Shown here piece by piece: positions 4,633 through 43,827 of a stretch of 44,077 nucleotides of DNA (positions within the stretch are counted from its first letter, which is position 1; each line of letters opens with the position of its first letter). Under the pieces are notes generated by a model that ran no database searches, was not told the origin of the DNA, and worked only from the letters and a program-made list of their open reading frames with translations. The DNA is taken from the sequence record JN984867. The stretch is one strand, 5' to 3'. Made by a program: the position numbers and the translations under genes. This DNA is from Shigella phage EP23.

Positions 4633-4954
4633 ATATGCAGCGATTGGACTGGGTGTCGGTCTGGCGGTAGGATTCTGGCTAGGTGACTCCTATCGCGCTG
4701 GCGTAGTGGCGGAGGCGGCGCAAGAAGCGCAAGCCCAAGCCCAACGGCAGCAAACTAAAGTTGTTGAGCGCTCCGTGCAGGCCGAACAGGCCCGCGACGT
4801 AGAATACCGGACTATCACGAAAGAGGTTGTTAAATATGTTACGCGCCCTAACCGCCCTGATTGTAGTTTTGATGCTGAGCGCGTGCGGATCAAGCAACGT
4901 GCCGTTGATGCCGCTAACGGAGTCGGCGCTGCGACCGCCGTGCAAGTTCGATAG
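4595..4954 (+). CDS. i-spanin (Rz-like)
   Basis: N-terminal TM helix IKYAAIGLGVGLAVGFWLG, Ala/Gln/Glu-rich coiled coil, C-terminal PDCSFDAERVRIKQRAVDAAN. An out-of-frame lipoprotein ORF overlaps its 3' half. A GTG at 4625 preceded by GGGGG may be the real start. Confidence 0.7.
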   Translation: MRSLKTGGYGVIKYAAIGLGVGLAVGFWLGDSYRAGVVAEAAQEAQAQAQRQQTKVVERSVQAEQARDVEYRTITKEVVKYVTRPNRPDCSFDAERVRIKQRAVDAANGVGAATAVQVR

Positions 4955-6438: not shown

Positions 6439-6467
6439 TATCATTTCCTCGTTGTTGGTGTGCAACC

Positions 6468-6497
6468 AATATAATGCAACCAACATCTGCAATGCAA
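6468..6497 (-). promoter_or_regulatory. sigma70-like promoter for the antisense island
   Basis: On the minus strand: TTGCAT-18 nt-TATATT. TTGGTTGCA boxes abut both sides of the -10, giving TATATTGGTTGCACACCAAC, which nearly repeats at 39515-39534. Confidence 0.55.
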
Positions 6498-12050: not shown

Positions 12051-12323
12051 CAAATCGGGACAGGCGGGACGTCCCGATTTATCCCGTTCTGTCCCGCACA
12101 TCTAAAAACTGCATATTTACCCACTACGATTGCATAAACTAAAAGCGGGACAGGGGTGCTGTCCCGATCTGTCCCGCCCCTCAAAAGTGAATGGCTATGC
12201 GGTTTTTCTGCATAAAACAAACGGGACAGAAAGCGGGACAGAATGAGGCGGGACAAAGCGGGACAGCACCCCTGTCCCAGTCAGTGCTGCCGCGGGTTTT
12301 GACCGATCGGGACAGGCGGGACA
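12051..12323. repeat. array of GCGGGACA boxes (module 1)
   Basis: GGGAC starts at 12057, 12066, 12147, 12223, 12235, 12250, 12260, 12309 and 12318. GTCCC lies at 12071, 12091, 12161, 12171 and 12274. The 19-bp palindrome GGGACAGCACCCCTGTCCC is at 12260-12278 and its reverse complement at 12147-12165. Confidence 0.85.
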
Positions 12324-12377
12324 ACTCCCAGTCTTTCAGACTAGACGGGGGTCAGCGGCCCCCCTCGTCTGAGACTG
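12308..12377 (+). repeat. 70-bp element, copy 1 (identical to 39263-39332)
   Basis: cgggacaggcgggacaactcccagtctttcagactagacgggggtcagcggcccccctcgtctgagactg. Compared base by base with copy 2: 70/70 identical. Confidence 0.95.
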
Positions 12378-12446
12378 AATAAGGTTTGTTTTAAATTCGC
12401 TGATACAATGACCGACGGCAACTGCATAAAAAAGGGGGACTGCATA

Positions 12447-15089
12447 ATGGCAGATCAGGCAGCGGGCATCACGCTCAAGGCGGACGTCGCGCAAATTAAA
12501 ACGGCTAATACTGTGCTGGACACATTTGCGCAGAAATCCGAGAACACAGAACAGAAAGTAAAGAAATTAAACGACACCCTCGGCAAGTCGAAAAAGGTTA
12601 CTGGCGACGCCGCGGGCGGAATGGAAAAGTTAGCGACTGAATCGCAGCGTGCCGCCGATGGCATGACGAAACAGGAGCGACTCGCCAGCCGATTAGGCAT
12701 GTCGACCAAAAACCTGGGATTCGCATCGCGGAACGCCGCATTCCAGTTACAGGATATTGCGGTGACGCTTGAGATGGGTATGCCGGTGCACCGCGTTATG
12801 CTTCAGCAGTTACCGCAGCTTACTGGGGCGTTTGGCGGACTGGGTAACACGCTGCGATATGTTGCGGGCTTTCTCGGCCCAGTAGGGATCGGCCTTTCAG
12901 CATTAACGGCGACGTTAGGCGTAGGGGTGGCAATTACGACCCGCGCAGAGAACCAGGTGGCGGCGCTTAATAAGACGCTGGCGCTGTCCGGTAATATTTC
13001 AGGCCTCACAGCTAACCAGATCCTTGTGCTGTCCGAGAACGCCGAGCGCATGGGCGGGTCATTTCGCAAGACGCGTGACACAATCCAGGCGCTGGCGGCG
13101 GCGGGTGTGAAAGCGGGTGGTGACTTCGGCGCATTGGCTAAGGTAGTTAATGACTTTGCGAAGGTGTCCAGCCAGCCGATCGAGGATGTGGTAGCGGCGG
13201 TGGCGAAGCTGTCAACAGACCCCGTTGGCGGACTGCGTGCGCTGGCGGATAAGTATCACGTCGTAAACGAAGCGCAGATCCAGCAGGTACAGTCGCTCGT
13301 TGATGCGGGTCGTGAGACAGACGCGGTTGCGTTGGCTAACAAAACAGCCGCTGCGTCGTTCACCAGCATGACCAATGAGATCAAGGCGAACATGGGTACG
13401 CTTGAGCGATCTATGAACGTCGTCACATCGGCAGCCAAATCAATGTGGGACGCCATCCTGGATGTGGGCCGCGCGCAGTCCTCCAATGAGTCCGAGATGA
13501 AAGCGCGCGAATCACTACAGCGCATGACCACGGCTTACTATGCCGAGATGAAAGCGGTAAACGCTGCCGGTGGGGTAATGACTGAAGCGCAGAAAGCACG
13601 TATTAACATGCTTTACAGCGAACTGGTCGCCCAGGAAAAAGTGGTGGCGTCGCTCACCCTGCGTAACCGTGCTGAGCGAGACAACGCCCGCGCCGCAGAC
13701 GAATCCGCAAAGGCGAACGAGGAGGCCAACCGCACCGCCCGCGACCGCGCTGCGTTCGAGAAGGAGTACGCAACTAACGCGAAGAAGCGCGCCGACGAGA
13801 TCGCCCGCCTCAATTTGCTGAATAAGCGCGGCGTTATTGATGAGAAAGAGCTTGCCGAGGCGGTGAAGCAGGTAAACGAGCGTTATAAAGACCCCGCCCC
13901 GAAGAAGGCCGCCGCTGTACGAGTCGATGCCGGTATGAAAATGCTGGAAGTCGCACGGAGCGAACTGGCCCAGCTTCGAGAATCCGGCAAGCAGATCGAA
14001 GCCAACGCGTCTACGCAGACCCGCACGCAACGCGCTCAAGCGGCCTTAAACAAGCTGATCGCCGACAATGAGCAGTTAATCGCGGCGAGCAAAGAAAGGG
14101 CGCTAACGGCAGCAGAGAAGCAGCAGATGGTAGAATTCGGACGCGTGAAGGAAGTGCGCGAGCAGATTGTCGAAGAAGCCAAACTACTGGACGCGAAAGA
14201 GAAGCAGGTTAAGGCGCACGCGCAGATCGACGCCTTCGTTAAGAACCAGAATGCCGAGCTAAAAGCCACCGCGGCGGGCTATGCGCTTTCTACTCGAGAA
14301 GCGGCAAACCTGCGTGAAGAATTGCAGCTAATCGACCGCCTGAAGCGTGTAGGCGCTAACGATACCGATATTGACAAGGCGGTGTCTAAGCTGCGGGAAG
14401 TGCAGGAGGCGCAGACCGGCGCTAACGCCTCGCTATGGGATGGATTCAGTCGCGGGCTTAAGGATAGCGTGGATGAAATGGGTAACGGATATACGCAGAT
14501 GGCGTCGCTCACGAAATTCACGTTCAGCGCTATGCAGGACACAATGAACGAGTTTTTCGAGACGGGCAAGTTGAACGCAAAGGATATGGTTAAATCCATC
14601 CTGAGCGAGTTAATCAAGCTGGCTACCTCGCAGGCGTTCAAGTCTATCGTTAGCGCTTTCGGTGGTGACGGCGGCAAAAACGGATTGTTCGGCGCTATCT
14701 TCTCTGGCCTCACTAAGAATGCGGACGGCGGAGCGTACGCAGGAGGCAATCTCGCGGCCTATTCGGGGAAAGTGGTAAGCCAGCCTACCTTCTTTAGTTA
14801 TGGCGTCCAGGCGTTCGCTAAGGGTGCGGGATTGATGGGCGAGGCTGGACCAGAGGCCATCATGCCACTGAAGCGCGGGCCGGACGGGAAACTGGGCGTT
14901 GCCGCGTCGGGCGCAGGCGGTGGTATGGTCGTGACGACTAACGTTTACACGGGGACTGGTAAAACGGATACCAGTGTCAGCGGGCCGGACCCCCGTACTG
15001 CGCAAGCGTTCGGCAAGCAAATCACCGAGGCGGTGAAGGCCGAGATCGTGAAAGCGACGAAACCGGGTGGTGTACTTTACAAACGATGA
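12447..15089 (+). CDS. tape measure protein
   Basis: 880 aa, long Ala/Gln/Lys-rich helical protein downstream of G/GT. Start trimmed to the ATG at 12447 behind GGGGGA. Confidence 0.9.
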   Translation: MADQAAGITLKADVAQIKTANTVLDTFAQKSENTEQKVKKLNDTLGKSKKVTGDAAGGMEKLATESQRAADGMTKQERLASRLGMSTKNLGFASRNAAFQLQDIAVTLEMGMPVHRVMLQQLPQLTGAFGGLGNTLRYVAGFLGPVGIGLSALTATLGVGVAITTRAENQVAALNKTLALSGNISGLTANQILVLSENAERMGGSFRKTRDTIQALAAAGVKAGGDFGALAKVVNDFAKVSSQPIEDVVAAVAKLSTDPVGGLRALADKYHVVNEAQIQQVQSLVDAGRETDAVALANKTAAASFTSMTNEIKANMGTLERSMNVVTSAAKSMWDAILDVGRAQSSNESEMKARESLQRMTTAYYAEMKAVNAAGGVMTEAQKARINMLYSELVAQEKVVASLTLRNRAERDNARAADESAKANEEANRTARDRAAFEKEYATNAKKRADEIARLNLLNKRGVIDEKELAEAVKQVNERYKDPAPKKAAAVRVDAGMKMLEVARSELAQLRESGKQIEANASTQTRTQRAQAALNKLIADNEQLIAASKERALTAAEKQQMVEFGRVKEVREQIVEEAKLLDAKEKQVKAHAQIDAFVKNQNAELKATAAGYALSTREAANLREELQLIDRLKRVGANDTDIDKAVSKLREVQEAQTGANASLWDGFSRGLKDSVDEMGNGYTQMASLTKFTFSAMQDTMNEFFETGKLNAKDMVKSILSELIKLATSQAFKSIVSAFGGDGGKNGLFGAIFSGLTKNADGGAYAGGNLAAYSGKVVSQPTFFSYGVQAFAKGAGLMGEAGPEAIMPLKRGPDGKLGVAASGAGGGMVVTTNVYTGTGKTDTSVSGPDPRTAQAFGKQITEAVKAEIVKATKPGGVLYKR

Positions 15090-21950: not shown

Positions 21951-21980
21951 GTTATCATCTCCTGTATTGGGTTGAGTTTT

Positions 21981-22009
21981 AGTATTACACCGCTCAACCA
22001 AGAATGCAA
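21981..22009 (-). promoter_or_regulatory. candidate promoter for the lipoprotein gene
   Basis: On the minus strand: TTGGTTGCAT (-35 TTGCAT)-17 nt-AATACT, preceded by TGT. Confidence 0.4.
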
Positions 22010-22031
22010 CCAATTTTATGAGGATTTAGCT

Positions 22032-23660
22032 ATGGCAGCGGGTACGCTCTCCGTAACGAACAATAGCAAGGCTGTAGTAGGGGTTGGCACAACGTTTACC
22101 GAGTACAAGGCTGGTGACTTCTTATCGCTGGTGGTTGGGCAAGTGCCTTACACCGTGGCGATCGCGTCCATCGAAAGCGCAACCGCGCTCACACTGGTGT
22201 TGCCGTTCGACGGCCCAACGGCGACGGGTCTGGCCTGGGACGGCATCAAACGTGACACCATGTCATTGGCGACGATGGGCGTAACCGTCCAGGCGCAAAA
22301 AGCATTGCGATTGATGATCGCAGATGAGAACAACTGGCGCGCAATCTTCGGAGAAGAAGAGGAAATAACAGTGACGTTACCTAACGGGCAGGTTATGCAG
22401 GGCATGTCATGGGGCTATCTGTCGCAGCTAATGAAGCAGATCGACCCCGTAGAAATGCGCAACCTGCAACAACAGGCCGAGACGGCAAAAAACCAGGCTG
22501 TTACTGCGAAGGGCCAGGCAGAATCAGCGCGCGATGCGGCTAATACAGCAAAAACTGGCGCGGAGAACGCCCGCAACCAGGCCAACACCGCACGTGATCA
22601 GGCCAACACCGCCAAAACAGGCGCAGAATCAGCGCGCGATGCGGCTAATACAGCAAAAACTGGTGCGGAGAACGCCCGCAGCCAGGCGCAAGGGTATCGC
22701 GACGAAGCAGAGCAGTTTAAAAACCAAATCAACCCATCACAGTTCATGCTTAAGTCGCAAAACCTTAGCGACGTAGCGAACAAAGATACGGCGCGGGACA
22801 ATCTGTCACTAGGCCGCACTCAGCGTGCGCAATTTGAGGGGGTTGACCTGTCTAAAAGCGACTGGCCCGGCTTAAGGTTTATTACAACCAGCATGTCACC
22901 AACAGAGGTCGGCTATCGCGTTGTCTTTGAGCATGATTCGAGTGATAACCGCATGGCGCTCTACTGGCGAAATGGCTCAGATGCCAATGGGCAGGCCGCC
23001 GTCCACTTCACCGCGCCTGCCAGCGGGCAGACGCGATTTATTGCATACAAGGAAGAAGTAAACCTTCCAGAAATTACAGGCTGGGGCGTAGCGGCTCCCT
23101 CGCAAGGACCGAGGGCGACGAACGCCACAAACCTTGCGCCGGGGCTTTATTGGGGTACCGTCGCTGACGTCGGCAATCCAATTTCAGGAACACTCGGCAT
23201 GTCGATGCTTCAAACATCAGGATCATCCGCCAATTACCGCTGCCAGTTGGTGTTTCAGGATAGCGCGGGCGGGGCGATGTATCTCCGTTCCAGTAATAGT
23301 AGCGTTTTTGGTAACTACAAGCAGGTAACTACCTCTGCGGTGTCGGATGAGCGCCTGAAAACTGTCCGGGGAAATCTTAATCTAGAAGGTGCGCTGGATA
23401 ACATAAACCGAATGGATTTTAAAATTTTCTCGTTCCTGAGTGATGGGCCGGAACGTAGCTACCGACGCGGCGTTATCTCGCAGCAGATCCGCCAGATTGA
23501 TAAGCAGTACACGAAAGAGATCGGCGGGTACTATCATCTTGATCAGACACCAATGCTACTGGACGCCCTAGCGGCAATTAAAGCATTGCGGGCGCGTGAC
23601 GAGGCTAATAAAGCAGAGATTGCAGAGTTAAAAGCGGCGATTGCAGAATTGAAAAAATAA
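22032..23660 (+). CDS. side tail fibre with C-terminal intramolecular chaperone (peptidase S74-type) domain
   Basis: 542 aa. Coiled repeat region, then a C-terminal S|DERLKTVRGNLN...IDKQYTKEIGG...ELKAAIAELKK typical of autocleaving fibre chaperone domains. Start trimmed to 22032. Confidence 0.8.
   Translation: MAAGTLSVTNNSKAVVGVGTTFTEYKAGDFLSLVVGQVPYTVAIASIESATALTLVLPFDGPTATGLAWDGIKRDTMSLATMGVTVQAQKALRLMIADENNWRAIFGEEEEITVTLPNGQVMQGMSWGYLSQLMKQIDPVEMRNLQQQAETAKNQAVTAKGQAESARDAANTAKTGAENARNQANTARDQANTAKTGAESARDAANTAKTGAENARSQAQGYRDEAEQFKNQINPSQFMLKSQNLSDVANKDTARDNLSLGRTQRAQFEGVDLSKSDWPGLRFITTSMSPTEVGYRVVFEHDSSDNRMALYWRNGSDANGQAAVHFTAPASGQTRFIAYKEEVNLPEITGWGVAAPSQGPRATNATNLAPGLYWGTVADVGNPISGTLGMSMLQTSGSSANYRCQLVFQDSAGGAMYLRSSNSSVFGNYKQVTTSAVSDERLKTVRGNLNLEGALDNINRMDFKIFSFLSDGPERSYRRGVISQQIRQIDKQYTKEIGGYYHLDQTPMLLDALAAIKALRARDEANKAEIAELKAAIAELKK
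22518..22680 (+). repeat. direct repeat inside the fibre gene (58 bp x2, 105-bp period)
   Basis: 22518-22575 versus 22623-22680 differ at 1 of 58 positions. They encode the repeated AESARDAANTAKTGAENAR segment. Confidence 0.85.
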
Positions 23661-24904: not shown

Positions 24905-24934
24905 ACTATAGTGCAACCAACCTATTGGTTGCAA
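24905..24934 (-). promoter_or_regulatory. sigma70-like promoter overlapping a perfect inverted repeat
   Basis: On the minus strand: TTGCAA-18 nt-TATAGT. The plus strand carries TGCAACCAA-ccta-TTGGTTGCA (24912-24933). Confidence 0.55.
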
Positions 24935-26570: not shown

Positions 26571-26599
26571 AATATAATGCAACCAATATGCTTATGCAA
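26571..26599 (-). promoter_or_regulatory. sigma70-like promoter
   Basis: On the minus strand: TTGGTTGCAT (-35 TTGCAT)-17 nt-TATATT, with a second TTGGTTGCA abutting the -10. Confidence 0.6.
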
Positions 26600-26604
26600 C
26601 CAAT

Positions 26605-33198: not shown

Positions 33199-33263
33199 TT
33201 TCCAATTCCTCATTTTCACATGTATCGGGGTTATTGGAAGCCACCCCGTTCGGCTTGGTTGCT

Positions 33264-33292
33264 AATTTACTTGGTTGCGCCTGAGCGGTCAA
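33264..33292 (-). promoter_or_regulatory. sigma70-like promoter for SSB/polymerase genes
   Basis: On the minus strand: TTGACC-17 nt-TAAATT, with GCAACCAAG in the spacer and AGCAACCAAG just after the -10. Confidence 0.5.
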
Positions 33293-35562: not shown

Positions 35563-36078
35563 TTAATCTTCCAGTTCGAAATAAGTTTCGACGATTTCTT
35601 TTAGCTCTTTGTGGAAGTCTTCGACGTCGTCATCTTCCAGCTTAGCGATTGATTTGATCTCGAACGATTCCAGAAGGTCGTCGAATTCGTCGTTCGCATC
35701 GTCGTCATCGCCACCGGCGATAATCGCGGCATACTGTTTGATTTCGTCGCGCATCTCCGCCAGCGGATCGGCATCTTTCTTACCTTTGCCTTTCGCCGGT
35801 GCTTTCTTAGACTTAGCCGGTTTTTCGTCTTCGGCATCGGCATCGTCGTCGTCATCTTCTACGACTTCTTTTTTGGCCTTACCTTTCGCCGGTGCTTTTT
35901 TGGTTTTCGCCGGGGCTTCGTCTTCAGCGTCGTCATCTTCTACGACTTCTTTTTTGGCCTTAGACGGCTTCTTGTCTTCCTGTTTACCAACGGCAGCGCC
36001 AACGGTTTCATAATGCTTAGCGATGATTTCCAGTGCTACTACGCCGCGAGTGATCAGGTTTACGATTTGCTCAAACAT
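35563..36078 (-). CDS. highly acidic early protein with Lys/Ala-Asp/Glu repeats (171 aa)
   Basis: SD GGAGA before the ATG at 36078. Repeats KKEVVEDDD..DE.PAK.KKAPAKGK. First gene downstream of the strong 36275-36303 promoter. Confidence 0.65.
   Translation of the reverse strand: MFEQIVNLITRGVVALEIIAKHYETVGAAVGKQEDKKPSKAKKEVVEDDDAEDEAPAKTKKAPAKGKAKKEVVEDDDDDADAEDEKPAKSKKAPAKGKGKKDADPLAEMRDEIKQYAAIIAGGDDDDANDEFDDLLESFEIKSIAKLEDDDVEDFHKELKEIVETYFELED
35780..35965. repeat. tandem ~81-bp repeats within the acidic protein gene
   Basis: gtcatcttctacgacttcttttttggcctta occurs at 35851-35881 and 35932-35962. cctttcgccggtgcttt recurs nearby. Confidence 0.8.
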
Positions 36079-36274
36079 GGTATATCTCCGATTGGTTAAG
36101 TTTAGGTGTCGACCATTAACTTCGTCGGTGGCCTTAACATAGTGCCAGGTTACGCGTTCTCCCGTTCGGGTAGTGGACCTGGTTATATAATCACGGTTGG
36201 GAATCCTGACACTTCGATCCGGCCCCTGCGTTGCCCCTCTCCAGTTTGCGTCCTGCATCCTGTCGACGAGGTGA

Positions 36275-36303
36275 ATATTAGATTGGTTGCAGAAGGGAGT
36301 CAA
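36275..36303 (-). promoter_or_regulatory. strong sigma70-like early-left promoter
   Basis: On the minus strand: TTGACT-17 nt-TAATAT, with TGCAACCAA in the spacer. About 190-nt leader before the ATG at 36078. Confidence 0.65.
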
Positions 36304-36313
36304 CAACTAATTT

Positions 36314-36480: not shown

Positions 36481-36810
36481 ATGAATATCAACGACGCAAT
36501 CGAAATGCTAACGAAGACTGTCTGCAGTGAGACTAGCCGGTCCTGGGCGTATACCGATGCCGTGGGGGCGGTGCTATTTGAAATCGAACGTCTGCGACTT
36601 ACCGAAAAAGAATTGCGCGCGAAGCTGGAATTACTCAACGGTACGGCAGCCAGCAAGCTGCAAAAGCACAATGAAGAAATGGAAGAATACAAAAAACAGG
36701 TTATCCGTTTGCGCGCCGAGGGAAAATCCTGGGCGATGATCGCTGAGTTGACAGGAATTAATCAGAGCACCGTGCGCTCCTGGGTACGCAATAACAAAAC
36801 TTCGAAGTAA
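36481..36810 (+). CDS. HTH DNA-binding protein (109 aa)
   Basis: C-terminal helix-turn-helix KSWAMIAELTGINQSTVRSWVRNN. First gene of the rightward early operon. Confidence 0.6.
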   Translation: MNINDAIEMLTKTVCSETSRSWAYTDAVGAVLFEIERLRLTEKELRAKLELLNGTAASKLQKHNEEMEEYKKQVIRLRAEGKSWAMIAELTGINQSTVRSWVRNNKTSK

Positions 36811-36820
36811 GGCAACGGCA

Positions 36821-39085
36821 ATGAGCTTAATTAAATTCGCTGTAACACGACCCGCTAAAAAAGGCGAAAAAGCCAGGGCGGAAAACTTCCAGATGACCAC
36901 CGATGAATTTTTCGAATTTATCAATGACGCGAAAGAAATATCATCGGTGCATATCAACAAGACCGAGGATAAAGCGGAGTATGCGCGCCGCAAGCGTAAG
37001 GCCGATGGCATCGTAGCGTATACCAGTGACGGCTTACGCCGCAAGACCAGCGCGGTGGACCGCTCGATCCTGTTCTTTGATATTGACCGCACCGACACTC
37101 GCACCTTACGCCGCTGCCGTAAGGCGTTCATTGACGCGGGTCTGGAACACGTATTCCACACAACCACCGGCGACCGCCACCCGCTTAAAGGCGGCACGCG
37201 TTGCGCTCGCTTCCTGGTACTCACTGATAAGCCGGTCCCGGCTGAAGACCTGGGCCGTGTCCAGTATGCGCTATTACATCAACTTGGTCTGTCGGATGTG
37301 GACTTCGACGATTGCACGAAAGACACAAACCGCCTGATGTACCTGCCGCACCAGCAATCGGTTATTAAGTGCCACTACGGCAAACGTGCCCGCGTCCGTC
37401 GTCTGCTTCGCCTGGCGGATACGCTTGGCGTGGAGAAGGAAGAAGTACGCCGCGAGCTTACCCAGGGCGACGACGCAGTGGCGGACGGGATTCTGGACTG
37501 GTGCTTCCAGGCAGGATTTGAGGAGTTATCTTCCGGTCGCGGTTATGAAGTGCCATGCCCGAACGAACATCTGCACAGCGGCGAAGGGTCGACGGCTATC
37601 ATGGTCAAGGATGGCGAGATCCGTTTCAAGTGTATGCACACAGGCAACGAGTGTTGCTCTGAGCTAAATAGACACCAGCACCTGGCGCTACGTCTTATCG
37701 GGATACCGGACCACCTGAACGTCGAGCCGCACAACATGTCGCGTAAGCAAATCGCCGCCATCCTGCCAGGTCTGGACGACGAGGAAGTCGAATCCTTATA
37801 TGATCATATTGTTGATGCAGTTGGCGACGGCGAAGAATACGGCGTGTGCACCGATGCGGATCTGGATAACGAGCCGGTCGCACTATTCAGTAAGCACGAC
37901 CCGATCATCGAAGGCCTGGTCAACTTCAAATCGACCTGGTACATGGCTGGCGAGTCGAACATCGGTAAATCGTTCTACGTGCTGGGCCAAATGGGCGCGG
38001 TTGCCGCGGGGATTCCGTTCGGCGGTGCGAAGGTCGTCCAGTCTCATTGCTTCTATTTCGACGCGGAAGGTGGCGAAGCCTCCAACCAGCGTAAGGAAGC
38101 ATTGCAGATCAAATATGAGCACGACCTGGACAAGCTGCACATTATTGACCTGCAATCACGCGGCTGGGATATCACCAGCAAATCAGGCTTGCGTGAAGTT
38201 ATCAGCTTCATCAACCGCACCGCTAACGGCGAGCCGGTTGGCCTGGTGGCGTTCGACTCACTCAACCAGACTGTTGCGCTGCGGTCCGCCGATGCAAAAC
38301 CGTTCGACGAGAACAACGCCAGCGATATGGGCGAAGTGGTCAAAGCGCTGAAGGCCATTGCGGAAAATACAGGCGGCAGTGCGGGCGTCATCCACCACCC
38401 GGCGAAAGGTGCAAACGGCCGCAGATCTCCCCGTGGGTCCGGCGCGCTGCATGGTGCTGTCGATTCTGCGTTCTTCCTGGAGCAACCGGACGACAACCAG
38501 CCAGGTCAATTGAACCTGTATCACGAAAAGGCACGTAACGGCATCAAGCAAGCGCCGCGCGGCTTCGTCCTGCTCAAGTGCAAGGTTAAGGTGGATCTCC
38601 GCAAGTCCGAAGCGTTCGAAGCCCACCAGTCCACCAGCACCGGGCCAGACTTCGGCGATGTGGTTGCCGGTTGGGACGTCAAACCAATTGCGTCCACCCC
38701 GCGCGACGAGACTCTATACCTCGTACCGGTAGCCCTGGCACCGTTCGCGATAGAACAGGCGAAGGCGGCGGGCAAAGCCGCAGTTAAGGAAGAGAACACC
38801 GCCGGTCCGCGCAACGAAAAAGAGAAAGTGCTTTATGCGGCCCTGGAAAAACTGATGGCAGATAACCCTGACCATACTGGATTCAGTAAATCGGCAATTG
38901 TACGCCAGGCGGGACTCGCTAAGGGTGGCACTTCGACGAAGGCAATCGACGATATGGTCGAGCGCGGCGTGATTGGTTTCTATACAGACCCGCACACCGG
39001 GGCCATATATGGGTCGTCGAATTTAGTCATCAAATCGGAGATCCCCATAACGCTTTCGGCGACCGATGACGACCTGAAAGACTAA
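36821..39085 (+). CDS. primase-helicase (N-terminal primase/polymerase-like domain, zinc finger, RepA/DnaB-like ATPase)
   Basis: 754 aa. LFFDIDRTD, CPNEHLH...CMHTGNECC, Walker A GESNIGKS, Walker B VAFDSLNQ. Confidence 0.8.
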   Translation: MSLIKFAVTRPAKKGEKARAENFQMTTDEFFEFINDAKEISSVHINKTEDKAEYARRKRKADGIVAYTSDGLRRKTSAVDRSILFFDIDRTDTRTLRRCRKAFIDAGLEHVFHTTTGDRHPLKGGTRCARFLVLTDKPVPAEDLGRVQYALLHQLGLSDVDFDDCTKDTNRLMYLPHQQSVIKCHYGKRARVRRLLRLADTLGVEKEEVRRELTQGDDAVADGILDWCFQAGFEELSSGRGYEVPCPNEHLHSGEGSTAIMVKDGEIRFKCMHTGNECCSELNRHQHLALRLIGIPDHLNVEPHNMSRKQIAAILPGLDDEEVESLYDHIVDAVGDGEEYGVCTDADLDNEPVALFSKHDPIIEGLVNFKSTWYMAGESNIGKSFYVLGQMGAVAAGIPFGGAKVVQSHCFYFDAEGGEASNQRKEALQIKYEHDLDKLHIIDLQSRGWDITSKSGLREVISFINRTANGEPVGLVAFDSLNQTVALRSADAKPFDENNASDMGEVVKALKAIAENTGGSAGVIHHPAKGANGRRSPRGSGALHGAVDSAFFLEQPDDNQPGQLNLYHEKARNGIKQAPRGFVLLKCKVKVDLRKSEAFEAHQSTSTGPDFGDVVAGWDVKPIASTPRDETLYLVPVALAPFAIEQAKAAGKAAVKEENTAGPRNEKEKVLYAALEKLMADNPDHTGFSKSAIVRQAGLAKGGTSTKAIDDMVERGVIGFYTDPHTGAIYGSSNLVIKSEIPITLSATDDDLKD

Positions 39086-39173
39086 ATCCTATTTTGAGTG
39101 TTTTTAGCTGGTCGCATTGGTTGCCGTGCAGTATAAATATAGTGAATAGTTATGCAATAAAACTGCATAAAGT

Positions 39174-39278
39174 AAGCGGGACAAAAAGCGGGACAAACTT
39201 GGGGCGGGACAAAGCGGGACAGCACCCCCGTCCCGCCCCGGATGACGCGGCCTGGAGAGGAGCGGGACAGGCGGGACA
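39174..39278. repeat. array of GCGGGACA boxes (module 2)
   Basis: GGGAC starts at 39178, 39190, 39206, 39216, 39264 and 39273. GTCCC lies at 39230. 39204-39234 matches 12248-12278 at 30 of 31 positions. Confidence 0.85.
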
Positions 39279-39332
39279 ACTCCCAGTCTTTCAGACTAGA
39301 CGGGGGTCAGCGGCCCCCCTCGTCTGAGACTG
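39263..39332 (+). repeat. 70-bp element, copy 2 (identical to 12308-12377)
   Basis: 70/70 identity by direct comparison. Confidence 0.95.
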
Positions 39333-39491
39333 CATAAAATCCGGGATTGCAAAATACACGGCAGCACATTGGAAATCGCGGTCGTCGATGAACTGGGCAA
39401 CCAATGCGAGTTGCAGAATGTGGTGTGAAAAATGCAGTTTGCAGTCACAGCTGATAGCGATCAACTTTTTCATGCGCATGATTAATATTGG

Positions 39492-39520
39492 TTGCATTCA
39501 TGCCAGCACCCTGCTAGATT
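39492..39520 (+). promoter_or_regulatory. sigma70-like promoter
   Basis: TTGGTTGCAT (-35 TTGCAT)-17 nt-TAGATT, followed by GGTTGCACACCAAC (the same post -10 sequence as at 6468), then SD GAGGG and the ATG at 39549. Confidence 0.6.
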
Positions 39521-39548
39521 GGTTGCACACCAACATGAGGGCTGAACA

Positions 39549-42279: not shown

Positions 42280-42447
42280 ATGTTAAAAAGCATTCTTGAT
42301 CATAATGCGGACGCGCTTGCCGCACTGGCTAAAACCGAAGACCCAGGCGCACGCGCTATCATAGCGGACTCTATCAACCACGCTGGGGTCTTCGATGCGA
42401 AGCTGCCAAGCCCACCACCGCAGGAGGAATCTGGTCCTGCAGCGTAA
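42280..42447 (+). CDS. small hypothetical protein (55 aa; below the ORF-track cutoff)
   Basis: SD GAGG. Hand translation: MLKSILDHNADALAALAKTEDPGARAIIADSINHAGVFDAKLPSPPPQEESGPAA. Followed by a strong terminator. Confidence 0.45.
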   Translation: MLKSILDHNADALAALAKTEDPGARAIIADSINHAGVFDAKLPSPPPQEESGPAA

Positions 42448-42453
42448 ACAATC

Positions 42454-42479
42454 AAGCCCGGAATTAACCGGGCTTTTTA
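42454..42479 (+). terminator. intrinsic terminator
   Basis: AGCCCGG-AATTAA-CCGGGCT followed by TTTTT. Confidence 0.85.
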
Positions 42480-42483
42480 TTGC

Positions 42484-42513
42484 TTGACTTGCAACCAACA
42501 TAGACTCTATACT
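42484..42513 (+). promoter_or_regulatory. sigma70-like promoter
   Basis: TTGACT-18 nt-TATACT. TGCAACCAA lies right after the -35 and TGCGACCAA right after the -10. Confidence 0.6.
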
Positions 42514-42542
42514 GCGACCAATCAACGAGAGGAGTAATCAAG

Positions 42543-42623
42543 ATGGCACGTAAAGATATTTGGGTATTAGCGATCTGGACCACCACGGCTTTTATCGACA
42601 TGGTTATTTGCGAATTGATATAG
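42543..42623 (+). CDS. 26-codon hydrophobic mini-ORF
   Basis: Strong SD GAGAGGAG 8 nt upstream. Sequence MARKDIWVLAIWTTTAFIDMVICELI. Sits 30 nt downstream of a good promoter. Confidence 0.4.
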   Translation: MARKDIWVLAIWTTTAFIDMVICELI

Positions 42624-42684
42624 CCCGCCGCCATACGGACCGTGGTATATTGTCCGCGGTCCACTAATCAGGAATTAATTAAAT

Positions 42685-43827
42685 ATGCACCCGCAAACTA
42701 AAATTACCGATGAGCAATTGATCGCAGAAATTCAGGAAGGGACTACAGTTAAAGAGATTGCGAAGAAGTACGGCATCGCACTTCGAAATGTCTATATGCG
42801 CAAAGCCCGCCTGTCTAAAAAGGGGATTGGTCACGGCAATGATGCAGTGATCCGTAAGCGCGTTGCCGATGGTTTTGGGGTTAAGCGCGTATCGGCCCTG
42901 GTGCGCGGCAATGGCGAAGAGGTCATGTCGTGGGTCATCACTGAGCAGGACAAAGAGCGCCAACTCGAAGCTATGCGCGCTGTTGTCGATGGTATGAACA
43001 GCGAAATCACACCGGCAGCGCCAGTAAAAGCCCCGCCAGTCCCAGTCCAGGCACTCGACTTGCTCAACCTGTACACCGTGTCAGACTTTCACCTGGGAAT
43101 GCTGGCATGGGGTGAGGAGACTGGCGAAGACTGGGATATGGCGATTGCTGAAGACCTGTTCTACCGCTGGTTTGTCGAAGCCTTCGCCCGCGCACCGGAC
43201 GCAGGAACTGCCGTTATCAATATCCTCGGGGATATGGCCCACTTTGATAGCCTTGATGCCGTCACACCGGCAAGCGGTCACGTACTGGACGCCGACACAC
43301 GATACCAGAAGTTGGTCCGCTATATGATTCGCATGGTGCGCAACGTGGTAGACCTGGCGCTGCAAAAACACCACAAAGTAAAACTGCTAATCGTCCAGGG
43401 TAATCATGACGAATCTGGTATGATTTGGCTTGCTGAGATGTTCAATACCTTGTATGAGAACGAGCCGCGCGTCGATGTGGACACGTCACCGGACGTCTAC
43501 AAAATGGTGCAGCACGGTAAGACTACGCTATTTTTCCACCACGGGCACAAAGCGCGATTCGATGTTATCGAGCAGGTTATGATCGCTAAATTCAGACAGG
43601 CGTTCGGGGCGAGCGAATACAGCTACGCGCACGTAGGCCATTTGCACCACCAGAAGATTGTTGAATCCCGCAACATGATTGTCGAACAGCACAGGACGCT
43701 CGCAGCGAAAGACGCCTACGCCAGTCGTGGCGGCTGGATGAGCGGTCGCAGCGCAAACGTCATCACCTATAGCGCCAACTACGGAGAAGTAGCGCGCTTA
43801 ACCATTAGCCCGGAAATGTTGAAATGA
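42685..43827 (+). CDS. HTH domain fused to a calcineurin-like metallophosphoesterase
   Basis: N-terminal TVKEIAKKYGIALRNVYMRKARL. Phosphoesterase motifs SDFHLG, GDMAH, GNHDE, HHGH. Confidence 0.65.
   Translation: MHPQTKITDEQLIAEIQEGTTVKEIAKKYGIALRNVYMRKARLSKKGIGHGNDAVIRKRVADGFGVKRVSALVRGNGEEVMSWVITEQDKERQLEAMRAVVDGMNSEITPAAPVKAPPVPVQALDLLNLYTVSDFHLGMLAWGEETGEDWDMAIAEDLFYRWFVEAFARAPDAGTAVINILGDMAHFDSLDAVTPASGHVLDADTRYQKLVRYMIRMVRNVVDLALQKHHKVKLLIVQGNHDESGMIWLAEMFNTLYENEPRVDVDTSPDVYKMVQHGKTTLFFHHGHKARFDVIEQVMIAKFRQAFGASEYSYAHVGHLHHQKIVESRNMIVEQHRTLAAKDAYASRGGWMSGRSANVITYSANYGEVARLTISPEMLK

Follow-up and report, generated by a model that had tools for sequence, protein, structure and literature searches.

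Two arrays of GGGACA boxes in Shigella phage EP23 as putative iterons of the phage's own primase-helicase

We analyzed 44,077 nucleotides of Shigella phage EP23 (sequence record JN984867; this whole stretch is called the window below), starting from a dense array of short GGGACA boxes that lies between the tail chaperone gene GT and the tape measure gene. Our preferred reading, which we consider probable, is that the boxes are putative iterons and that the phage itself encodes their reader, the winged-helix tail of a primase-helicase predicted to join an archaeo-eukaryotic primase (AEP) to a RepA-type helicase. The genome carries two copies of one module that most likely works as an origin, region A in the tail operon and region B directly behind the primase-helicase gene. 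The principle is known from other mobile elements and is newly described here for this phage group. The window belongs to a Dhillonvirus and is 92–95% identical to StarDew, HK578, SSL-2009a and others.

The gap that holds the first array is 396 bp long, as the initial annotation of this DNA had stated: it follows the GT stop (12050) and precedes the tape measure ATG (12447), a start that agrees with the 2643-bp gene of HK578. We take the gap to be non-coding because 46 of the 49 indels among 13 relatives are not multiples of 3. Within 12051–12323 we counted nine forward GGGAC cores (at 12057, 12066, 12147, 12223, 12235, 12250, 12260, 12309 and 12318) and five reverse ones (at 12071, 12091, 12161, 12171 and 12274), which is identical to the earlier count. 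Fourteen cores in 273 bp compare with 0.26 expected from the rate in the rest of the genome (Poisson P ~7e-20), and the densest 273-bp window in 300 first-order Markov simulations had at most 5, which places the array far above a composition-based expectation. Across the whole window there is a mild excess of GGGACA (27 vs 18 expected). The signal is one of clustering, with 12 of the 27 in 12051–12323 and 6 more at 39178–39278.

The palindromes that had been described are all there: GGGACGTCCC at 12066–12075, and GGGACAG-N5-CTGTCCC at 12147–12165 and 12260–12278, the latter two being reverse complements of each other. Both GGGACAG palindromes are included in a 32-nt inverted repeat (12147–12178 and 12247–12278) whose arms are 94% complementary and have 68 nt between them. 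Distances between forward boxes are 12, 15, 10 and 9 bp, in line with the 9–15 bp reported before. We also agree that this is not a CRISPR array, which we ruled out because the boxes are 8 bp long, lie in both orientations and have a spacing of 9–16 bp, compared with regular repeats of 24–40 bp. The TGCATAA-type motifs noticed beside the array turned out to be a genuine co-motif: the heptamer TGCATAA/TTATGCA occurs 15 times in the window vs 5.7 expected, and 7 of the 15 copies are in the two array regions. In each box set the heptamer precedes the first box by 14–16 nt, and it is found again directly after the hairpin of region B. A -10-like element, a binding site and a translational operator are candidate roles for it.

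Two points of the initial annotation needed correction. The coordinates 12051–12323 do cover the array, but they are too narrow for the element, which runs on into a hairpin at 12329–12377. The array had also been treated as unique, whereas a second copy is present at 39176–39279. Both gaps are annotated as repeats, under the names "region A" and "region B", in the GenBank record of Sodalis phage SO-1 (GQ502199 / NC_013600), which speaks of "direct, inverted and palindromic repeat sequences" and notes the mutual similarity of A and B. The parts of region A are as follows.

12051..12446, plus strand: region A, the whole non-coding gap from the GT stop to the tape measure start, supported by the indel pattern; 'region A' of the SO-1 record
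12055..12097: distal box cluster with TCGGGACA, GCGGGACG (within the palindrome GGGACGTCCC), a degenerate TCCCG and a reverse GCGGGACA
12098..12144: AT-rich segment, 70% AT (genome 45.6%), with ACTGCATAT and TTGCATAA
12145..12178: left arm of the 32-nt inverted repeat, with a forward box, the palindrome GGGACAGGGGTGCTGTCCC and a further reverse box; 94% complementary to 12247–12278
12179..12221: central AT-rich segment, 63% AT, with GTGAATGGCTATGCGG and CTGCATAA; candidate unwinding region between oppositely pointing boxes
12221..12280, plus strand: core array of four direct boxes (12221, 12233, 12248, 12258), forming the right arm of the inverted repeat
12281..12306, plus strand: region A-specific spacer, with CAGTGCTGCCGCG invariant among region A copies, unlike the spacer of region B
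12307..12323, plus strand: proximal pair of direct boxes, TCGGGACAG and GCGGGACA
12329..12377, plus strand: long hairpin formed by CAGTCTTTCAGACTAGACGGGGG, a loop and CCCCCCTCGTCTGAGACTG; stem conserved, loop variable
12420..12447, plus strand: two ACTGCATAA motifs 18 bp apart around the tape measure Shine-Dalgarno sequence, the second overlapping the ATG

The GCGGGACA arrays thus lie at two separate places in the genome, 12055–12323 and 39176–39279, about 27 kb apart. The second one, directly 3' of the gene for the 754-aa primase-helicase, has six GGGACA boxes at 39178–39278, and the cluster behind the stop codon of that gene counts seven GGGAC cores. Region B is made up of these parts.

39086..39548, plus strand: region B, the non-coding gap directly 3' of the primase-helicase gene; 'region B' of the SO-1 record
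39112..39125: left arm, TCGCATTGGTTGCC, of a perfect 14-nt inverted repeat around module B (partner at 39396–39409); it carries TTGGTTGC
39126..39175: AT-rich segment, 74% AT (genome 45.6%), with GTGAATAGTTATGCA-N7-CTGCATAA; kept in lineages with other boxes
39176..39236, plus strand: four direct GCGGGACA boxes (39176, 39188, 39204, 39214) and an imperfect reverse box (39229–39236)
39262..39279, plus strand: proximal pair of direct boxes of region B
39284..39332, plus strand: hairpin of region B, within the 78-nt repeat 39260–39337

What the two regions have in common is a module with a fixed order of parts. It begins with an AT-rich segment that carries GTGAATAGTTATGCA-N7-TGCATAA or a degenerate form of it, followed by four direct boxes of which the last is palindromic, a spacer (about 27 nt) that is not the same in A and B, two more direct boxes, and the long hairpin. 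In region A the counterpart of GTGAATAGTTATGCA-N7-TGCATAA is the central segment 12179..12221, and the last box of the core array (12258) forms the palindrome GGGACAGCACCCCTGTCCC. Two direct repeats are common to A and B, one of 78 nt (12305–12382 and 39260–39337, 97% identical) and one of 35 nt (94%); the core array is 94% identical to 39200–39234, and the hairpins at 12329–12377 and 39284–39332 are 97% identical. Region A has two upstream box sets in addition, including reverse copies, and therefore has boxes of opposite orientation on both sides of its 63% AT centre. The hairpin of region A is followed by AATAAGG, with no adjacent T run, and that of region B by CATAAAA; neither was called as a terminator by our scan. 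We rejected intrinsic terminators for both hairpins since no T run directly follows them.

The arrays are conserved within the genus. The gap sequence matched 157 records in the phage collection, and 150 of the 157 cover at least 80% of it. For a closer look at the columns we used 14 copies of region A and 17 copies of region B from IMG/VR contigs of relatives. In the boxes, 71% (A) and 74% (B) of the columns are invariant, as compared with 46% (A) and 23% (B) of the non-box columns upstream of the hairpin. The GGGAC cores of the core array are nearly invariant in the 14 relatives, and the distal box cluster at 12055..12097 is more weakly conserved than the core boxes. Spacers vary in sequence and in length, with 1-nt indels being common, and the hairpin has a fixed stem and a free loop. 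Selection, by this pattern, acts on the boxes. In many relatives the right arm of the box palindrome decays (TGTCCC to CGTCCC, AGTCCC or GCCCCA) and the forward box is kept, so the conserved feature at this palindrome is not pairing.

In wider relatives, the position of the array is kept and the box sequence is not. Homologues of the primase-helicase at 37–86% identity usually have a non-coding gap of 0.4–0.9 kb directly 3' of the gene, with an AT-rich segment, direct boxes and a palindrome, and the box sequence differs by lineage. In Cornellvirus-like lineages, as in Dhillonvirus, a spacer, two further boxes and a G5/C5 hairpin stand at the same relative position. A hairpin, with a different outer stem, is found at this place in all lineages examined. 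We saw about ten box types (L numbers are our labels for lineages or loci).

GCGGGACA: Dhillonvirus, including the lineage at 68% identity
GGTGCCA: L039
ACTCGCAA: L040, L057–59, L078
GGGATC: L041
GGGGGAGA: Cornellvirus (VSiP, L063, L079)
TGTCGGAA: L068, L077, L080
AGGGATAA: L069
CGGACAA: L070, L072, L074–76
GGGGATG: L081
TCGCCCCG, less clearly defined: Edwardsiella phage eiAU

In the Cornellvirus VSiP there is a helicase-adjacent array only, and the junction between GT and the tape measure gene is tight. Because the array is single there and the tail junction closed up, we regard the position next to the helicase gene as the common one and the copy in the tail operon as an addition. The tail-operon copy was seen in Dhillonvirus and in Eiauvirus (phage eiAU), where the gap between GT and the tape measure gene is about 1.1 kb and has a 52-nt segment (88%) in common with the gap after the helicase gene, including one candidate box. 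The eiAU gap also has an annotated minus-strand open reading frame (ORF) at 42365–42718, which may be an inserted gene besides the repeats. In both two-copy lineages the distant copy thus keeps sequence in common with the local copy, which points to a shared reader acting in trans. A T-protein search for the tail-operon copy in the lineage at 68% identity returned only close relatives. We also scanned IMG/VR with the pattern CGGGACANNNNGCGGGACA; it was too unspecific and we have not used it as evidence.

An indication of what the reader might be comes from natural recombinants, in which the box type changes together with the primase-helicase's C-terminal end. L077 (box TGTCGGAA) is 96–100% identical to L075 and L076 (box CGGACAA) over residues 1–650 and then falls to 56/54/36% over the last ~115 residues. 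Likewise, L063 and L079 (box GGGGGAGA) are 92–100% identical to L070 (box CGGACAA) over residues 51–650, with 82% in the first 50, and drop to 56–58, 40 and 62% in the C-terminal ~115 residues. When the DNA of L077 is compared with that of L076, similarity is lost at about codon 659 and resumes in the gap only as short patches outside the boxes. L077 and L080 have the same box, and their arrays are 89% identical whereas their genes are only 79% identical. None of the neighbouring ORFs within about 3 kb of the recombinants tracks the box type. The gene and the part of it that is exchanged are located in the window as follows.

36821..39085, plus strand: primase-helicase, 754 aa, the proposed box reader
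38801..39040, plus strand: predicted winged-helix domain (codons 661–740), exchanged with the box type in natural recombinants

The only Pfam match of the primase-helicase is a RepA-type AAA_25 helicase core at residues 357–531 (E 6e-19). A model of residues 1–345 (predicted local distance difference test, pLDDT, 85) has an AEP primase-polymerase (PrimPol) fold at about residues 1–205, with the PrimPol of cyanophage S-2L as its best match (E 3e-5). The invariant D87-x-D89 and H120, along with an invariant Cys/His cluster at 246–287 (a zinc motif), fit this assignment. The core is connected by a variable linker to the predicted C-terminal winged helix. In the model of residues 601–754, confidence is restricted to 661–740 (pLDDT 81–90), which has a helix-strand-helix-helix-wing topology, and the structural neighbours of this part are mostly winged-helix binders or domains (MarR-family regulators, linker histone H1, ORC, LexA, RIOK2). 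The only sequence relative of the helicase core in PDB is RSF1010 RepA, which is a weak match (E 0.14–0.46).

The initial annotation had seen in the array a landing pad for a DNA-binding protein and offered three candidates for it. We favour the replication initiator among these, and specifically the primase-helicase, which had been listed as a possible binder: it adjoins the second array, the box type changes with its C-terminal ~115 residues, and that end is modelled as a winged helix. The idea that the binder is dimeric did not gain support. A small helix-turn-helix (HTH) protein at 36481–36810, also proposed as a binder, does not co-vary with the box type and we rejected it as the box reader. 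Its HTH is almost unchanged in L039 despite the different box there, and its counterpart is 98.6% identical in L079 and L070, where the boxes are different.

Given this protein, the process could run as follows. The winged helices of several primase-helicase subunits would dock on direct and inverted boxes, and docking would concentrate the RepA-type helicase beside a segment of 63–74% AT, where the duplex would open. The helicase would load itself and the N-terminal AEP primase would lay the first primers, and the conserved G5/C5 hairpin beside the boxes may be a priming or loading signal. AT-rich segments do abut the boxes and, in region A, the 32-nt inverted repeat flanks one of them, which is origin-like. 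The opposed boxes around the AT-rich centre of region A have the layout that would be expected for loading two opposed helicases, and because of this layout region A may either serve as an additional origin or work jointly with region B, in the way that crr and ori do in phage P4. Binding, unwinding, priming and any origin activity, as well as a division of labour between A and B, are what we infer.

One could go further and propose that the tail-operon copy is no redundant duplicate and works either as a second origin or, by looping to region B, as a crr-like partner, and that its occupancy by the primase-helicase also controls whether transcription reads through into the tape measure gene and the distal tail genes. 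We think that this extension is quite unlikely. If it were true, the dosage of late tail genes would be tied to the state of replication.

We looked for host factors and for other signs of an origin as well. GTGAATAGTTATGCA is kept next to the boxes in most lineages examined (in L005 at 4833–4870) despite the differences between boxes, and this conservation suggests a common factor, which may be a host protein or a conserved phage protein. GTGAATAGTTATGCA resembled two imperfect DnaA boxes, but DnaA boxes were rejected since TTATNCACA with at most one mismatch occurs 31 times vs 25.6 expected, and only one such match falls within the two modules (12207–12215). TGAATAGTTATGCA agrees with the ArgR box TGAATWWWWATTCA at 12 of 14 positions here (39142–39156) and at 13 of 14 in L039 and L076, the latter having two ArgR-like copies 21 bp apart. 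In the window the ArgR-like box is not enriched, with 2 matches vs 1.2 expected, and we leave the resemblance unexplained. GC skew tracks only the direction of transcription and gave no origin signal. In the plasmid collection we found no plasmid with this replicon; the sole full-length match, a 44-kb record, has the look of a phage genome. We found no paper that defines the replication origin of a Dhillonvirus in the literature searched.

A known system comparable to the proposed one, with other proteins, is found in the Staphylococcus aureus pathogenicity islands (SaPIs). The SaPI Rep reads iterons of 5–6 nt with a C-terminal winged helix, and the ori lies directly 3' of rep and has an AT-rich centre (PMC9371898). 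That ori has 6–12 very short iterons in opposite directions, the helicase is self-loading, and SaPI5 has its primase and helicase fused (PMC9371898). Region B is alike in position, starting at the primase-helicase stop codon, as the corresponding gap does in most relatives sampled, whereas region A shares this position only as a duplicate, 27 kb away. The symmetric layout, on the other hand, is that of region A, which has reverse boxes at 12160 and 12170, the 63% AT centre and forward boxes from 12221; region B has it in part, with no box to the left of its AT-rich segment. A possible counterpart of the SaPI winged helix is the one modelled at 661–740, for which the structural matches are weak (E 0.02–0.5). 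There are also clear differences. The core here is of the RecA type (RepA/AAA_25), while the SaPI Reps are AAA+ proteins with superfamily 3 (SF3) or MCM-like helicases (PMC9371898). The boxes here are 6–8 bp, the second copy lies about 27 kb away in a structural operon, and the module includes a conserved long hairpin and TGCATAA motifs. PDB sequence and profile searches detected no sequence similarity to the SaPI Reps. Because the core is AAA_25 and its only PDB relative is RSF1010 RepA, we consider the SaPI system a functional analogue and not a member of the same family.

For a pair of arrays built on a single 8-bp box, phage P4 offers the closest parallel, and two such sites are what we find here; eiAU too has two gaps that share a 52-nt segment. 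The alpha protein of P4 reportedly binds the octamer iteron TGTTCACC at ori and at crr, both of which are said to be needed. In P4 these two sites are about 4.5 kb apart, as compared with about 27 kb between the arrays here. In P4 alpha, a single polypeptide has a primase of the DnaG type, an SF3 helicase and, at its C-terminus, a winged-helix domain for origin binding (PMC2777425). The protein in EP23, with its AEP PrimPol and RepA-type helicase, is not homologous to it.

The ORF904 protein of the archaeal plasmid pRN1 has the three-domain combination that is predicted for the phage protein, with an AEP prim/pol, an SF3 helicase and a C-terminal winged helix (PMC2777425). The pRN1 work considered here places an essential cis region just downstream of the gene (PMC2777425, PMC4234260), which is another likeness; the helicase of pRN1, being SF3, is a difference. 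In that work the cognate binding site is not identified and a short-box array is not described (PMC2777425, PMC4234260). We rejected a classical iteron plasmid origin (as in pSC101, F, R6K and RK2, with iterons of 17–22 bp and DnaA boxes), since the boxes here are 6–8 bp and DnaA boxes are not enriched. The oriV of RSF1010 (IncQ) has iterons, an AT-rich segment and two hairpins (ssiA and ssiB) that are used by the plasmid primase. The ssi hairpins are a possible model for the hairpin here, but RSF1010 has separate helicase, primase and iteron-binding proteins (RepA, RepB' and RepC) and its iterons are about 20 bp. The system in EP23 is therefore built from different parts than those of SaPI and P4, and has an unusual second copy in a late operon.

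There are a number of points that speak against iterons for the primase-helicase. Region A lies within the late operon, where an origin would meet transcription, and in region B the left side of the AT-rich segment is free of GGGACA boxes. With all six core boxes on the transcribed strand and a hairpin at the end of the module, a role at the RNA level is possible. The structural matches of the winged helix are individually weak (E 0.02–0.5), and PDB sequence and profile searches with the primase-helicase gave no significant match to a solved origin-binding domain. The joint exchange of the C-terminal domain and the array may reflect linkage in a cassette and not recognition, and our view of the recombinants spans about 3 kb on each side, so that a co-varying protein could be encoded elsewhere. 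L039 (GGTGCCA) and L054 (GCGGGACA) have different boxes and C-terminal domains about equally distant from that of the window, and specificity would thus rest on few residues. The candidate box of eiAU is poorly defined. One group of primase-helicase relatives at 43–45% identity has no array after the gene in the sequences inspected (L064, L065, L066 and L073), and k-mer counts alone indicate that L067 and L071 of this group likely have none either. In the four inspected, the gene is followed by terminator-like hairpins and then by sequence that by eye has a coding appearance, and any origin of this type would lie elsewhere, given that no array follows the gene. Finally, we found no published discussion of either array in the literature searched.

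We considered what else the module could be. It might serve transcription control, with boxes for an activator or repressor and a terminator or attenuator hairpin that would reduce the output of the tape measure gene and the tail genes behind it compared with the major tail protein and the chaperones and, in region B, would separate the replication operon from the genes downstream. Both copies do lie between co-directional genes and on the transcribed strand, and a strong hairpin closes each of them. A rho-independent terminator is annotated in the gap between GT and the tape measure gene in the HK578 record, and in Cornellvirus-like relatives the hairpin is followed by the T-rich ATTATTCATTTA. 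TGCATAA, which is found 14–16 nt upstream of the box sets, also occurs in two copies around the ribosome-binding site of the tape measure gene. However, consensus scans called no promoter in region A or B, the hairpins here have no adjacent T run, and the only terminator-like call within the array is the palindrome at 12146–12166, on the minus strand. The box type, moreover, follows the helicase's C-terminus and not the nearest regulator, which is the small HTH protein. Because the Cornellvirus module occurs only after the helicase gene and the junction between GT and the tape measure gene is tight there, regulation of tail genes would not be the ancestral role. Taking these points together, we believe that transcription control is an unlikely explanation.

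Two other explanations leave out the primase-helicase as reader of DNA boxes, and we find them less credible. The module might encode a structured RNA of about 160 nt, from after TGCATAA to the hairpin, whose GGGACA would act for example as a protein sponge in the manner of the GGA repeats of CsrB. The six core boxes on one strand with A-rich linkers and a GGA in each, the -10-like CATAAA upstream, the hairpin at the end, and the folding of region B, which is better than that of shuffles (z -2.96), would all fit with this. Region A, by contrast, folds no better than shuffles (z -1.35), five of its boxes are on the opposite strand, and no promoter was called. In Rfam there was no match at the gathering score, and the only models at E<=1 were eukaryotic miRNA hairpins and one eukaryotic snoRNA, spurious matches that all scored well under their thresholds. 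The right arm of the palindrome decays while the forward box stays, and the box differs completely between lineages, in step with a domain of DNA-binding type. We judge such an RNA to be very unlikely. We give still less credence to sites for the terminase (pac), for a partition-like system or for recombination, with the primase-helicase not involved; such sites seem to us highly improbable. Several records have been opened within or beside region A (eiAU, PNS1, BEK2-2, UAE_MI-01, Kente and the IMG/VR contig of L207), and a pac site is needed because Dhillonviruses package by a headful mechanism (PMC9022532). The breaks are more simply explained by assemblers that stopped at the A/B repeat of ~80–150 bp. 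The conserved position adjoins the primase-helicase gene in all lineages and not the terminase genes, the box type tracks the helicase's C-terminus, and we noticed no partition genes in the ORFs and domains examined. For users of these records, the A/B repeat is probably the reason for the breaks of several public assemblies here, which would then not be a physical end of the genome.

The analysis gives a testable proposal for where replication starts in Dhillonviruses, for the protein that would read the site and for the ~80 residues that would give specificity. Dhillonviruses are among the most commonly isolated siphophages of E. coli. A winged helix and its boxes that are swapped as a unit, in about ten types, would be a natural series for studying how short iterons are recognized, and this series could supply orthogonal phage replicons. 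There is also a link to phage defence. HK578 mutants that escape OLD have been mapped to two places, the helicase-primase gp46 and the promoter of its operon, gp45-gp46 (bioRxiv 10.64898/2026.07.10.737580), and gp46 is the homologue of the primase-helicase at 36821–39085 in the window. The same preprint ties the activation of OLD and of Lamassu to hairpins that palindromic repeats of origins form (bioRxiv 10.64898/2026.07.10.737580). Regions A and B, with their palindromic boxes, hold candidate triggers of this kind, and we take the HK578 data as indirect support for the proposed mechanism.

A second motif, TTGGTTGC, is over-represented in the window, with 17 copies vs 2 expected. Copies are found at 6462–6483, 24913–24932, 26579–26603, 33255–33278, 36283, 39117, 39397, 39488, 39519, 40073, 42491 and at other places; the sites inspected in the sequence are intergenic and many of them are paired. 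One pair forms the perfect 14-nt inverted repeat around module B (39112–39125 and 39396–39409). The copy at 39488–39495 overlaps a -35-like TTGCAT, and TAGATT follows 17 nt later. There are 23 copies in eiAU, and Cornellvirus-like relatives have TTGGCTG or TTGGCAGC at similar positions. The small protein encoded upstream of the primase-helicase is of the HTH_3 type in the Cornellvirus-like relatives, whereas here it is like HTH_23 or sigma-70 region 4. This small HTH protein (36481–36810) may read TTGGTTGC as a promoter or operator element of the phage.

Some of the records that we compared look doubtful in other respects. 'Acinetobacter phage NJ01' and 'Campylobacter phage A144' match this Dhillonvirus at 83–94% over the 0.4–1.7 kb that we queried, and the host labels of both records look doubtful. 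The record of P-GXEC-L2P5 is 88.6 kb long and has six matching places, which suggests a concatenated assembly. The window also has two tandem repeats in coding sequence, one with a period of 105 nt (copies 97% identical) at 22518–22687, within a 562-aa plus-strand ORF at 21972–23660, and one with a period of 93 nt (74%) at 35769–35951, within a minus-strand ORF at 35563–36306.

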